Source: Anolis carolinensis (taxonomy: Eukaryota). From it: a DNA stretch of 64,000 bases. This document shows positions 12,616 through 52,341 of the stretch, piece by piece. Location: contig NW_026943821.1 in assembly GCF_035594765.1 (NCBI RefSeq), forward strand, positions 1,297,105 through 1,361,104, given 5' to 3'. The notes under the pieces were generated by a model that made no database searches, was not told the origin of the DNA, and saw only the letters and a list, made by a program, of their open reading frames with translations. The position numbers and the translations under genes are program-made. The first letter of the stretch is position 1. Every line of letters begins with the position of its first letter.

Positions 12616-15600
12616 ATGTGGGCACTGAGCAGCGGCTGCGGGACATCTTGGCTGAGCCTCTTTCTAGCCGGTGAGCGATTGGGGTTCAATGGGGTGCGTG
12701 ATACAAATATACTGTATATACTCGAAGATAAGCTGAGTTTTTCAGCCCTTATTTATGAGCTGAAAAAGCCTCCCCTGGCTTATAATCGGGTCAAGGTCAA
12801 GGCTTGCAGGCTGTTGCTTGCAATATGTGATCTATTTCTCTCTTCTCCTCCCTTATCAGTGTGTTTTCTTTTGCAAAGCCTCCCTCGCTCTTAATCAAGG
12901 GAATGGTTTGCAAAGAGAAAGACACTCTTGCAAGTCAGGAAGAAGAAAAATATATATACATTAATCTTATGAAAGCATTTCCTCCTGAAATATTTTTCAG
13001 GGATTGGGTTCAATGGGGTGCGTGATACAAATATATTATCTATCTGTACAAGGAGAGACCCAAGGGGTACATTTAGGGGGTGGGAAAGATCATGGCTTTG
13101 GCCGTGGGTGGCCTGCTATACACCATGGCTGTGCCCACAAACACACCCAGCGGGTTGGTTCCCATCCTTTCAATTTGTCTTAAATTGAAACTTTCATGTT
13201 TGCATTATTTGTATTATTGTTACTTTCACGTATGGCTTAATACTTTCATGTCTGGCTCAAAGGCACCGACTGATGGCCTTTCAGCCCACCTAGTGATTAA
13301 AACATTAAATACATAGAGAACACAGTGCATTAATGGAACGGTGCAGAAGGATTGTTGCTGGTCATCCATAAAAATGTCAAGAAATCATTGGACGCATTTG
13401 GACCCTACTTGAGCTGTCATATCTCCATGCAGTGGGATCTTGGGAGTTGTAGTTTGCACACGTTGGCAGAGAAGGCTGATGACCTTGCAACACTACAGTT
13501 CCCAGGATCCTATAGCATTGAACCTTTGAAGTTTAAATAGGGCCAAACTGCATTTGTTCTGCAGTGTAGGGGCACCTTTAGGAAAACTGTAACTCCCAGG
13601 ATTCCATAGCATTAAACCATTGCAGTAAAAACGTATTTATTTACTGTATTTATATACCACTTTCCTCACCCCTGGGGTCTATGTCAAACTGCTTTAATTC
13701 CACAATACAGGTGGGCCTTTAATACCCCCAAGGCCTAAACATCCTCAAATCCCATAGCATTGAGTCAGGGCGGTTCAAGTGGCACCAAACTGCAATAATT
13801 CTACAATGTAGATGGCCCATTATCACCTCACAGAATTGCAAATCCTAGAGTCCCATAGCATTAAGCCAGGGCAGTTCAAATTACATTCATTTGATAGTGT
13901 AGGTGTACCCTGGCTTCATGAATGGGAAAACATAGTAGAAAATATCATATTTCATCGCATAATAGTCACCATCACAAAATAGTCTCACCCCCATTTTTTT
14001 AGGTGCCAAAATAGTATTTTTGTTTTCCTTGCATAATACAAGGGCTATCCAGAAAGTAGATTACGTTTTGGAATTAAAAATGAACAAAGTATAGGAGAAA
14101 ATATTTACCATATGCAGTTGAAAGCCACACCCAAATACCACATCTCACATAGTCGCCATTAAAATCTAGTGCTTACCATAGCGATGAAGGAGCTTTGCAA
14201 CTCCTTCCCCACTAAATTCTGCCGCTTGCGCCCTCAACCAGCCGGTCACCCCTTCCTGCAGCTGTTCAGTGTCGCCAAAACGCTGCGTTGCCAGCCATGT
14301 CCCCATTGTTGGAAACAAATGGTTGAGGAAGCAAGCGGCAAAATTTAGTGGGGAAGAAGTTGCAAAGCTCATTCATTGCTATGGTAAGTGCCTAGATTTG
14401 AATCGCGACTACGTGAGAAGTGGTATTTGGGTGTGGCTTTCAACTGCATATGGTAAATGTTTTCTCCTATACTTTGTTCATTTTTAATTCCAAAACGTAA
14501 TGTACTTTCTGGATAGCCCTCGTAGTTGCACCCATATTTGAGGCTGATCCTTCCCTTCCTTCTTTCCTTCCTTCCTTCCTTCCTTCCTTCCTTCCTTCCT
14601 TCCTTCCTTCCTTCCTTCCTTCCTTCCTTCCCTCCATCCCGTTTTCTTGGAATACAACTGGGTGTGTGTGTGTATGTCAAACTGCAGGATCCAGTTAGCA
14701 AAAAGAAAACCACTCACAAACAGGTTTGGTTGGAGCTGGCTATGACTGCTTTTAGGTCTACAGAAAGGAAAGACTCTGCTGGTTTTTCCCCCGTTAGCTC
14801 TTCATTTTAAAGCCCATCGCCCACCCCATTCTTCAGTTTCCGCTTCCCAAAGGTTTCACAACTTGGTCTCCAACACTATTTGCTGGCTCAGGTTGACATG
14901 GAGAGATTTTGGATAATGGAATATGATTGTGCTAGAAAGAAGGAAGGAAGGAAGGAAGGAAGGAAGGAAGGAAGGAAGGACGAGATAATCAGCCGCAAAT
15001 GCGTCTGTAATTTAAGAACAAACAGGAATGGAGCTGTTTCTTTGAGGCTGGATCGTCCCTCTTCCTCCTCTTTCAGAGCCAAGGCAATTCATTTAAAATC
15101 AACACCAACAGAAAATAGAGAATCAAAGGCAGATGTCGTTTCCTCGCGTCTTTATTTTAATGAAAAAAGGGCGACTATTATGCAATGAAATATGGGTAAG
15201 TGTTCAAACCTGATTACAACTTGGAATACAGTACTGTGTGTGTGGATAATGGGATATGACTGTTCTAGAAAGATAACACTGAATGTTGGCTTCTCCAACC
15301 AGCCCAGATCTGGAGTTCGTGCTTCCTCGTGGCTCACTCGCAAGCCACCAAAAACGTGACTATTAGCATTGCAGTGACCCCGGAGTACCCATTGATTGGA
15401 GACTCGGTTACACTGATCCCGGTGACAACGGCAATGGACGTGATCTCCTGCCTGTGGCTCAAGAGCTTTGATAGCGAATACCATGAGATCTTCTTGCATA
15501 AGATAAAACCTGACAATAAGGTCGTGATGGGAGATGGCTACGACGGGAGGCAGATCCTCCGGTCCAACTGTACCATGCGTATCACCCAACTGAAAACCGA

Positions 15601-18600
15601 GGACATGACTCTCTACGTTCTCATCAGGAACACCACTGGGGTGACCGAGATTGGCAAAACCTTCCTGCGGATCCTGGAAGATAGTAAAGGTTTGGGGTTT
15701 TGGGGGGCATCTACATGGCCAAACAGTGGCACTTTTACTTCTTCTTTTATATATTTTTTTTCACATGTACAGTAGTAGGGTTGTGCAAAATTATCATTAA
15801 TTGTTGTAAGTTGAATCAATTTCGTCAAATTCATATTTACGAGGCGATATCCGACACGTGGGCATGGCCTGCGCCAAAAACGTAACAGTCCAAACATACC
15901 CAATACTTTTTCGTTTGCTCTTTGTAAACCTAAAGATTCAAGGGTATAGCTGTTGTGACTAATTTTTTTTAATTCCCTAAAATCAGTAGATGTACGAATA
16001 CTTCTTGTGTCACTGTACAGAAAATTTAAGGAGGTTGCTCTTGTCGGGTTTTTTTAAAGCTGTTTATAAAACTTTGAAAATTCCCCATAAACCCATAGAT
16101 AAGTGAAACGTTCTGAAACTTGGTGGGCTAAGTTTCACCCCAATAACTGCAAAAACGAGGAGCTGCTGAAGTTTCCCCACTGGCACAACTACGATAACGA
16201 AAAAGAAGCGAGATTTCGTAACTCGCGTTAGAGTAATGAAATTTTCACTGACAAGAACTTTAGAAACACTTGGGAAACGAAACGCCCGCTAATTTTGTAC
16301 TGAGTTTTGAGACATGTTTTATTGATTGCACAGCCCTAATGTATACAGTAGAGTCTCACTTATCCAACACTTGCTTATCCAACATTCTGGATTATCCAAA
16401 GCATTTTTGTAGTCAATGTTTTCAATACATCATGATATTTTGGTGCTAAATTTTTAACTACACTAATTGCAACATAACATTACTGCGTATTGAACTACTT
16501 TTTCTGTCAAATTTGTTGTATAACATGATGTTTTGGTGCTTAATTTGTAAAATCATAACCTAATTTGATGTTTAATAGGCTTTTTCTTAATCCCTCCTTA
16601 TTGTCCAACATATTTGCTTATCCAACGTTCTGCCGGCCCGTTTATGTTGGATAAGTGAGACTCTACTGTACTAAATTCATAAATACAGTAATTACTACGT
16701 AGCATTACTGCTTATTGAACTACTTTTTCTGTCAAATTTGTTGTATAACATGATGTTTTGGTGCTTAATTTGTAAAATCATAACCTAATTTGATGTTTAA
16801 TAGGCTTTTCCTTAATCCCTCCTTATTATCCAACATATTTGCTTATCCTACGTTCTGCCGGCCCGTTTATGTTGGATAAATGAGACTCTACTGTACTAAA
16901 TTCATAAATACAGTAATTACTACGTAGCATTACTGCTTATTGAATTACTTTTTCTGTCAAATTTGTTGTATAACATGATGTTTTGGTGCTTAATTTGTAA
17001 AATCATAACCTAATTTGATGTTTAATAGGCTTTTCCTTAATCCCTCCTTATTATCCAACATATTCGCTTATCCAACATTCTGCCGGCCCGTTTATGTTGG
17101 ATAAGTGAGACTCTACTGTATATTGTAAAAAAGAGAGAAGAAGTCTAAGAGAAGGCTGAAGCATGAGGTTTTTAGACAAATGGATCTAATTTACTTATGT
17201 TTTAATTTTTATAATGTATTTTAATGATGTATTTTTATAGTTTTAATTGATTATATGTACTGTTTTTTTGTTTTATTATTATGTTCTTGGCATTAAATGT
17301 TGCCAACTGTGTAAGCCGCCCTGAGTCCCCACCGGGTGAGAAGGGCGGGGTATAAATTCTGGAAATAAAATAAATAAATAAAGTCTAAGTGAAGTTCAAC
17401 CAAGCAGAGTAACCCCTTCGGGATCACAGATCTCTGTGTCCTACGTCCAGAAAGGGGATGATGGGAGCTGCAGTCATTTTTTCTGATCCCAGACCAGTTG
17501 GCGGAAGCAGAGCTCTTGAGGAAAGAAATAGGGGTGGATAACCTGTCCCAACATCCTATGGCAGTCCTAATGGTGTTTCCTTGTGTGCCCAGCGAACACG
17601 CCTTCTCCAGATCCAGATGCGGGCGAACCAAAGGTCATCACCTTGGGCAACATGGCCGGCATTGGCGTCGCCTGCCTCATTGTGTCCCTCTTAATCGTAG
17701 GCCTGATTATGTACCGGACCATGAAACAACCGGAAGGGTAATATTAATTTAATCTTTGTTCTTTATTTCCAATGGATCCGTCGTCTCTTGCGGGGAGGAA
17801 CTCAAGAGACAAAAGCAAATCATTACCTCCGCCTATATCTAAAGACTATTTTGTGCTATTTTAAAATGTTTAATTATAACCATGAAAAACATTACAATGG
17901 ATTTAAAATACACACAAAAACCAGTTTACTCGGATTTAAAAAGAGTATTATTATTATTAGGGGCCCCTGGTGGCACAGTGTGTTAAAGCGCTGAGCTGCT
18001 GAACTTGTGGACCAAAAGGTCCCAGGTTCAAATCCCGGGAGCGGAGTGAGCGCCCCAGTTTCTGCCAACCTAGCAGTTCGAAAACATGCAAATGTGAGTA
18101 GATCAATAGGTGCCGCTCCGGCGGGAAGGTAACAGCGCTCCATGCAGTCATGCTGGCCACATGACCTTGGAGGTGTCTACGGACAATGCCGGCTCTTTGG
18201 CTTAGAAATGGAGATGAGCATCAACCCTCAGAGTGTGAGTAGATCAATAGGTACTGCTCCGGCGGGAAAGTAACAGTGCTCCATGTAGTCATGCCAGTGG
18301 CCACATGACCTTGGAGGTGTCTATGGACAATGCCGGCTCTTTGGCTTAGAAATGGAGATGAGCGCCAACCCCCAGAGTGTGAGTACATCAATAGGTACTG
18401 CTCCGGCAGGAAAGTAACAGTTCTCCATGTAGTCATGCCAGTGGCCACATGACCTTGGAGGTGTCTATGGACAATGCCGGCTCTTTGCCTTAGAAATGGA
18501 GATGAGCGCCAACCCCCAGAGTGTGAGTAGATCAATAGGTACTGCTCTGGCAGGAAGGTAACAGCGCGCCATGCAATCATGCTGGCCACATGACCTTGGA

Positions 18601-51823: not shown

Positions 51824-51856
<33 letters not shown>

Positions 51857-52341
51857 ATAATGGGATATGACTATGCTAGAAAGATAATACAGAACATTGG
51901 CTTCTCCAACCAGCCCAGATCTTGATTTCGTGCTTCTTTGTGGCTCACTCGCAAGACACCAAAATCGTGAACATCAGCGTTGTACTCCTCCCGGAGTTCT
52001 CAATGGTTGGAGACTCCGTTACAATCATCCCAGAGACAACGGAGCGGGACGTGACCTCCTGCATGTGGTTCAGGAGTTTTGAGGGCAAATACTATCCGAT
52101 CATCTTTAAACAGTTCAAGCCCGACGAGAGGGTCATGAGGGGAGATGGCTATGATGGGAGGCAGTTCCTTAGGGAGAACTGCGCCCTGCGCATCACTGAG
52201 CTGGACATCGCAGACATGGCAATCTACATGATCATCAGGAACACCACCAGCAAGACTGAGGCTGGAAAAGTATTCCTGCGGATCCTGCGAGACAGTAAAG
52301 GTTTGGTGGTTTGGGGCATCTACATGGCCAAACGGAAGTGC

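Follow-up and report, generated by a model that had tools for sequence, protein, structure and literature searches.

The 64,000-nucleotide stretch of Anolis carolinensis DNA analysed here (the window) is a cluster of CEACAM1-like genes, each with a leader, a single IgV N domain, a transmembrane segment and a short tail. Self-comparison of the window reveals four tandem units of ~11-15 kb each on the + strand, plus the beginning of a fifth, and Anolis proteins mapped onto it place the exons of genes G1-G4 in the order leader, N, stalk plus transmembrane and short cytoplasmic. The same mapping places only the N exon of a divergent member, G0, inside the window, the remainder of that gene lying beyond it. 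The proteins of G4 and G0 are 100% identical to Anolis carolinensis records in a word-index search. As is typical of CEACAM genes, the N exon also encodes the end of the leader, the joints are in phase 1 and a membrane anchor is present. All five N domains carry two cysteines at the same non-canonical sites, in strand C and where strand E begins, and these probably form a disulfide across the two sheets of the fold.

The family identity of these domains was established by sequence and structure comparison. Pfam V-set is found in 5/5 of them, with scores under the curated cut-off, and a search of PDB sequences with a 73-sequence profile returns CEACAMs as its top 31 matches (E 1.6e-21 to 1e-11), the next family following at 1.6e-7. 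A structure model built on the 73-sequence alignment (predicted local distance difference test, pLDDT, 94.8) was used, and a model from a 5-sequence alignment (pLDDT 51) was discarded. The best structural matches (Foldseek, VIA) are CEACAM N domains (Z 16.6, root-mean-square deviation 2.0-2.1 Å, 103-105 residues aligned); the first 30 rows in VIA are all CEACAM (Z 16.6-14.4, next 13.8), as are the first 6 rows of the wide search. ESM Atlas clusters carry V-set, VSIG10L2 and CEACAM names, with taxa resolved only to Chordata. The closest matches in both sequence and structure, the mammalian CEACAM1/3/5/6/8 N domains, likewise lack the B-F cysteines and have the Arg-Asp residues, but they differ in having Tyr and Ala at the two sites (other mammals mostly Phe/Leu/Ile/Tyr and Gly) and no disulfide; unlike these proteins, G1-G4 have neither an IgC domain nor a tyrosine motif.

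The genes are CEACAM1-like, and neither CEACAM1 orthologues nor CEACAM19. Orthology to CEACAM1 was rejected on the lack of an IgC exon in the gene models and of an immunoreceptor tyrosine-based inhibitory motif (ITIM) in the tails of P0001, P0002, P0004 and P0007. CEACAM19 was rejected because snake and marsupial domains, which we take to be CEACAM19-like from their sequence, group apart and lack both cysteines, and because G0, G1, G3 and G4 have no immunoreceptor tyrosine-based activation motif (ITAM). Siglec V domains, including that of CD22, have a B-strand Cys bonded to strand E and an F-strand Arg three residues after the Tyr; the domains of the window have Pro at the B site, and Ile (G1-G4) or Leu (G0) three after the Tyr, and this identity was rejected as well. 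CD2/SLAM (CD48 reaches Z 12.9 in the wide structure search) and DICP were also considered and rejected. LIPE, BCL3 and TOMM40, the genes that mark the synteny of the CEACAM family, were not identified in the window.

The reptile CEACAM1-like family was described in a 2026 preprint (Zimmermann and Kammerer, PMC13278318). Its genes share with those of the window an N exon that includes the leader end and an arrangement in tandem clusters, and the same family comprises ITIM, ITAM, secreted, tandem-N and motif-less single-N transmembrane forms. The main text of the preprint mentions neither cysteine, disulfide, Anolis nor anole (its supplementary alignments and AlphaFold models lay outside this text check).

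The cysteine pair in the window and among relatives

The observation of the pair in the window domains is secure. All 13/13 motifs quoted in an earlier sequence-only reading are present in frame, and exactly two cysteines occur per mature domain in 5/5 cases, as that reading had claimed. It was likewise correct that the B- and F-strand cysteines are missing: the B site is Pro in 5/5, and the F site, taken as two residues after the Tyr, is Leu or Ile in G1-G4 and Val in G0. The strand-C Cys lies two residues before the Trp (W-2) and the strand-E Cys 11 residues before the Asp of D-x-x-x-Y (D-11); counted from the anchors Trp41 and Asp98, these are IMGT positions 39 and 87. The pattern C-x-W...C-x-[LMIV]-x-I...D-x-x-x-Y has exactly five matches in the six frames of the window, four on the + strand and G0 on the - strand. 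The pair is thus kept in the divergent G0, as had been proposed, although this gene (818-480, -) lies outside the interval 15303-52300 that had been given for the trait. In the comparison of the 73-sequence profile with PDB sequences, the two cysteines align with the Tyr of G-Y-S-W and the Ala of N-A-S-L, and the model places Cys34 of G1 inside strand 31-40 and Cys74 directly ahead of strand 76-78.

G1-G4 are paralogues at 48-65% identity, and their domains are therefore not independent. At the level of sequence, what argues against chance is G0, at 29% identity, together with 126 non-redundant carriers among relatives, whose median identity is 31%. The residues of the Arg64-Asp82 salt bridge, which stabilises CEACAM N domains according to the available part of PMC4079198, are also kept (Arg in G0, G1, G3 and G4, Lys in G2, and Asp in 5/5), as judged from sequence only. 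At the Asn70 glycosylation site, which is common in the family without being strictly defining, a sequon (N-C-T) is present only in G1; G4 has N-C-A, and the position is Tyr in G2, His in G3 and Asp in G0.

Relatives were collected with a profile of the five domains, which found 383 proteins at E 0.001; the domain counts rest on the best 150 of these 383. A lizard-only family, as might have been suspected from a word-index search in which G4 and G0 matched only Anolis (3 and 1 records), was rejected on this result. The best 150 plus Anolis gave 152 proteins with 256 domain matches, of which 18 partial or unanchored ones were dropped. Among the remaining 238 anchored domains, 139 have both cysteines and 94 neither, while 3 have only the strand-E and 2 only the strand-C Cys. 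With later matches added (173 proteins, 271 domains, 5 unanchored) and the set thinned to <80% identity, 207 non-redundant domains remain: 126 with both, 79 with neither, and 1 each with only the strand-E or only the strand-C Cys. In carriers, too, the canonical B site is Pro (100/126) and the F site aliphatic. When domains are selected by their strand-C Cys (127 domains), conservation of the strand-E Cys is 99%, versus 96% for the Asp and Tyr of the tyrosine corner.

All carriers with a species name (32/32) are squamate or turtle, covering 16 squamate genera (Podarcis via cluster member P0174) and 4 turtle genera, and among carriers are CEACAM1-type proteins with two ITIMs, proteins with an ITAM, and tandem-N proteins that lack a membrane anchor. 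Named non-carriers comprise frog and mammals, a snake CEACAM19-like domain and one gecko domain. No crocodilian, bird or tuatara occurred in the 30 proteins for which a name was sought or the 14 matches that came with one, which is not evidence of absence, as most carriers had no species lookup. The proposal that the pair defines a subfamily is therefore right only at a much larger scale, that of a squamate and turtle CEACAM1-like radiation with ITIM and ITAM members, and the trait is not specific to the cluster in the window. Similarly, the statement that mammalian N domains have Y-S-W and N-A-S-L at these sites is accurate for human CEACAM6 as aligned, but not for CEACAM16 N2, which has a strand-E Cys (N-C-S-L) and Tyr on strand C, leaving no partner there.

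Single cysteines are rare in this set. The domains with only the strand-E Cys are of this CEACAM16 N2 type (P0104, P0095 and P0140; pig and koala identified), and the strand-C-only case is one Podarcis ITIM-bearing CEACAM1-type domain with Phe at the E site (P0132, P0138, P0164 and P0165). In a gecko protein inside the carrier clade (P0172, which may be truncated), both cysteines were lost together, to Val and Gly. The Podarcis Cys/Phe and gecko Val/Gly domains represent natural losses that could be used as controls. Non-carriers combine a large and a small residue at the two sites (FG 42, LG 11, YG 11, IG 8), the pattern expected of residues that face each other in the core.

Other Ig domains (P0041, P0123 and P0134) also have a Cys at D-11, with different likely partners (W-5 or the B strand). 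In perch P0123, which like P0041 was compared as a fish-type domain with four cysteines, the B-strand Cys is the likely partner, whereas the reptile domains have Pro at the B site and the partner at W-2; P0041 has canonical cysteines and a Cys at W-5 in addition. Judging from these sequences, D-11 appears to be a hotspot of non-canonical bonding.

Probable disulfide formation and the origin of the pair

An intradomain disulfide between strands C and E, across the sheets, is the reading that we favour, with a probability of roughly 0.85. The bond is likely because the two cysteines are retained together and were lost together in the gecko, because non-carriers pair a large with a small residue, and because the same geometry has precedents in titin and in engineered V domains. 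The inter-sheet bond suggested by the sequence-only reading is thus well supported by register, precedent and co-retention, from which the bond itself is inferred. In titin I1 (PDB 1G1C), a crystallographic C37-C62 disulfide joins strands C and E; from the numbering of APEG-1 in the same source (V51/W53 and C76/D87/Y91, with V51-C76 as a core pair), the offsets W-2 and D-11 follow (PMC1352370, in part). This natural inter-sheet bond thus has the register of the reptile pair, but titin I1 is an intracellular I-set domain of an unrelated lineage, studied as a redox and mechanical modulator. In the V-set fold, Cys39-Cys87, at the same positions counted from the conserved Trp and D-x-x-x-Y, was successfully engineered between strands C and E of an antibody V domain, where, according to the portion of the paper available, it 'does not occur naturally' (PMC10641266); in contrast to this engineered bond, the reptile pair is inherited and is the sole Cys pair.

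None of the sequencing runs examined is recorded as RNA; they are RNA by guess only, and the evidence used is their spliced joints. In contigs of 4/4 runs from 3 studies, the G4 leader is joined to the N exon, and the N exon to the transmembrane exon, at GT..AG ends, which places the N domain outside the cell. As an alternative, the two cysteines might be buried free thiols that serve as small hydrophobic core packing: the volume of Cys plus Cys (217 cubic Å) is near that of the Leu plus Gly of non-carriers (227 cubic Å), an unpaired Cys is tolerated in Podarcis and in CEACAM16 N2, and CD8 alpha has a free strand-C Cys. Yet Ser, Ala or Val almost never substitutes for a single Cys among 126 domains at 31% identity, the domain goes through the secretory pathway, and the W-2/D-11 register is known to bond, making free thiols very unlikely. 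The extracellular location also bears on the proposal that the bond forms but acts as a redox-sensitive or mechanical switch like that of titin I1, and not as a fixed stabiliser. The C-E bond of titin Ig1 does change the unfolding pathway under force (PMC11926396, in part), but titin is intracellular and both reptile cysteines are at core positions, and we regard a switch as highly improbable. For fish DICP domains, extra cysteines were suggested to act in dimers (bioRxiv 2021.06.11.448072, in part), which would by extension allow intermolecular bonds into covalent dimers or chains here; this is scarcely credible given that both sites correspond, in the alignments, to core residues that point inwards (the Tyr of G-Y-S-W and Ala of N-A-S-L; V51-C76 of APEG-1) and that the two cysteines occur together within each domain, also in tandem-N proteins.

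Several points weigh against the favoured reading. In a pooled C-E library of a heavy-chain variable domain without the canonical bond, 39-87 was not among the enriched pairs, a type of miss for which the authors give reasons (PMC10641266, in part). The co-occurrence of the cysteines in carriers is largely one inherited event and not 126 tests, and a lone Cys is tolerated in two lineages, as Cys/Phe in the CEACAM1-type domain of Podarcis and as Tyr/Cys in the N2 domain of mammalian CEACAM16. The profile itself favours carriers, as the Cys columns contribute ~12 bits and the list ends near 52 bits, and reptile domains without the pair are therefore under-sampled. Finally, when the Cys columns were masked, a FastTree rooted on fish domains did not keep the carriers together, and the two domains of P0039 fall outside the main carrier clade of a masked IQ-TREE.

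Concerning the origin of the pair, carriers form one group with support 0.80 in a tree that includes the Cys columns. After Cys masking, FastTree with its distant fish root proved unstable, and fish rows were removed for later trees (71 rows). In the quick masked IQ-TREE of these 71 rows, 50/52 carrier-group rows form a clade (Shimodaira-Hasegawa-like approximate likelihood ratio test support 87), and a single clade of all 52 was not rejected by the approximately unbiased (AU) test (p-AU 0.746), its likelihood being 19.8 log units higher with the Cys masked. One gain of the pair is therefore allowed, not proved. The claim that the bond was separately acquired fits the tree insofar as the AU test does not reject one origin and frog, mammal and CEACAM19-like domains lack the pair, a single origin being unproved. 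It is alternatively conceivable, though rather improbable, that the pair predates reptiles and was lost in mammals, with the lone Cys of CEACAM16 N2 as a relic; this concerns the origin only and is compatible with the bond. The strand-E Cys in CEACAM16 N2 of pig and koala would fit such a relic, as would the pair of P0039 on its long unplaced branch among unresolved deep forks. However, frog domains, snake and marsupial CEACAM19-like domains, CEACAM16 N1 and mammalian CEACAM1/PSG-type domains are all without the pair, so that several losses would be needed, and the single-clade tree is not rejected and has the higher likelihood. P0039 has two domains, each of which carries the pair.

Surface diversification and a proposed history of the N domain

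The window paralogues differ at their surface, and this diversification is real. The N domains of G3 and G4 are 83% identical, whereas two flanking regions are 99-100% and a third 95% identical. Between them (36969-37298 versus 51961-52290), the segments from the B-C loop to C'' and F-G hold 27 non-synonymous and 0 synonymous differences, versus 18 and 10 elsewhere (one-sided p 0.001, with segments defined from the model and the pair chosen from six). The other G1-G4 pairs show ratios of non-synonymous to synonymous substitution rates (dN/dS) of 0.71-1.67 on this face; over the whole domain, dN/dS among G1-G4 is 0.58-1.47, and G3/G4 is not significant (p 0.19). The G3/G4 pattern may reflect diversifying selection, gene conversion or a contribution of the latter. 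By comparison, dN/dS is only 0.55-0.81 in the N exons of CEACAM1 from lizards, snakes, crocodiles and birds, and lizard CEACAM1 orthologues lack the accumulation of changes on the binding face that the Anolis paralogues G3/G4 show (PMC13278318). Diversification of the same face is reported for Xenopus CEACAMs in the accessible part of PMC5112662, where no mention of cysteine or disulfide was found. Because Xenopus CEACAMs diversify and the frog domains found here are without the pair, the bond is not needed for diversification, and the idea that it permits hypervariability is not supported as a cause.

These observations can be arranged into a history of the N domain. The ancestral CEACAM N domain would already have lost the B-F bond and relied on the Arg-Asp salt bridge, with two facing sites filled by a large residue and Gly or Ala, as the frog and mammal sequences show. 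Both sites would have changed to Cys in the reptile line, ahead of the turtle/squamate split, in what may have been one gain. The strand-C Cys and the Cys at the start of strand E would form a cross-sheet bond, likely stiffening the top of the core, and since the salt-bridge residues are retained, this bond would be an addition and not a swap. The pair would then have persisted as the family radiated into ITIM, ITAM, tyrosine-free, secreted and tandem-N forms, with diversification sitting on the exposed C-C'-C''-F-G face, as in G3 versus G4, and not in the core; ligand or pathogen binding at this face is suggested by what is known of the family. A bolder extension is that reptiles, once the canonical disulfide had been lost, re-evolved a natural inherited V-set bond, Cys39-Cys87, at a new place and kept it since before the turtle/squamate split, and that the added stability allowed the N domain to diverge to ~30% identity and to give rise to decoys in tandem N-only, secreted and tyrosine-free forms; we consider this speculative and unlikely as a whole.

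The pair is genuine and clade-wide in a known family, the reptile CEACAM1-like N domains, where it likely forms a Cys39-Cys87 disulfide. The geometry of the bond is already known from titin and antibody engineering, and the literature searched contained no report of a family of V-set receptors that uses it naturally and inherits it: no description of this pair was found in work on reptile or frog CEACAMs or on non-canonical C-E bonds, subscription papers being outside the search. A known family and a known bond geometry limit the surprise. The pair nevertheless provides a one-line sequence marker by which reptile CEACAM1-like domains can be told apart from CEACAM19 and from the CEACAMs of frogs and mammals, and it qualifies the view that a salt bridge holds CEACAM N domains together instead of cysteines, as expressed in the part of PMC4079198 consulted. 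If the bond forms, a V-domain bond listed by antibody engineers as engineered only would have a natural counterpart, which would also be a ready template to stabilise recombinant CEACAM N domains and a clean test case for the question whether receptors that face pathogens gain evolvability from extra core stability.

Gene structures and other features of the window

Coordinates of CEACAM1-like gene features in the window
Feature	Positions	Strand	Remark
G0 N exon	480-818	-	end of signal peptide and IgV N domain; divergent member
G0 strand-C Cys	697-699	-	KCQW
G0 strand-E Cys	589-591	-	DCSLSI
G1 leader exon	12616-12670	+	coding part
G1 N exon	15303-15689	+	donor 15683 or 15689 possible
G1 strand-C Cys34	15449-15451	+	IMGT 39 by counting
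G1 strand-E Cys74	15569-15571	+	IMGT 87 by counting
G1 stalk and transmembrane exon	17593-17737	+	
G2 leader exon	23732-23786	+	coding part
G2 N exon	26287-26673	+	Cys codons 26433, 26553
G2 stalk and transmembrane exon	27625-27769	+	
G3 leader exon	35360-35414	+	coding part
G3 N exon	36922-37308	+	Cys codons 37068, 37188
G3 stalk and transmembrane exon	40152-40290	+	
G4 leader exon	48029-48083	+	coding part; spliced to N exon in contigs of 4/4 runs
G4 N exon	51914-52300	+	Cys codons 52060, 52180; both GT..AG joints in 4/4 runs
G4 stalk and transmembrane exon	53681-53825	+	
G4 cytoplasmic exons	56221-56905	+	two coding exons, about 56221-56271 and 56846-56902; tyrosine-free tail
G5 (further copy) leader exon	62818-62872	+	with upstream block (block 62818-64000); N exon past window end

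For G4, a loose contig end continues into the first cytoplasmic exon in 3/4 runs, the stretch compared having left out the cytoplasmic exons, and no variant is listed in the N exon within the contigs of the 4 runs. In G2, one contig of one run joins the leader to an internal acceptor ~30 bases into the N exon (26287-26320), which would shorten the signal peptide by 10 residues in frame. Tyrosine is absent from the tails of G1, G3 and G4 (17593-21064, 40152-43315 and 53681-56905), making these genes predicted single-N membrane proteins without ITIM or ITAM; they resemble the motif-less decoys proposed for terrapins, but are produced by spliced exons. G0 (protein P0004), in the opposite orientation, belongs to a subclade other than that of G1-G4 and has a predicted tail with two Tyr motifs, YENI and IYAT; no leader exon was found for it.

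In G1 the first cytoplasmic exon is duplicated (19035-19389), and model P0007 uses both copies; in G2 there are two copies of the last coding exon, accompanied by another remnant (30149-31948). Tandem repeat arrays are located at 1838-2255, 18091-18950, 21288-21843 and 61218-62169. Retroelement-like reading-frame fragments occur across the whole window, and 272 N fill assembly gaps near 28.2 kb and 54.0 kb.

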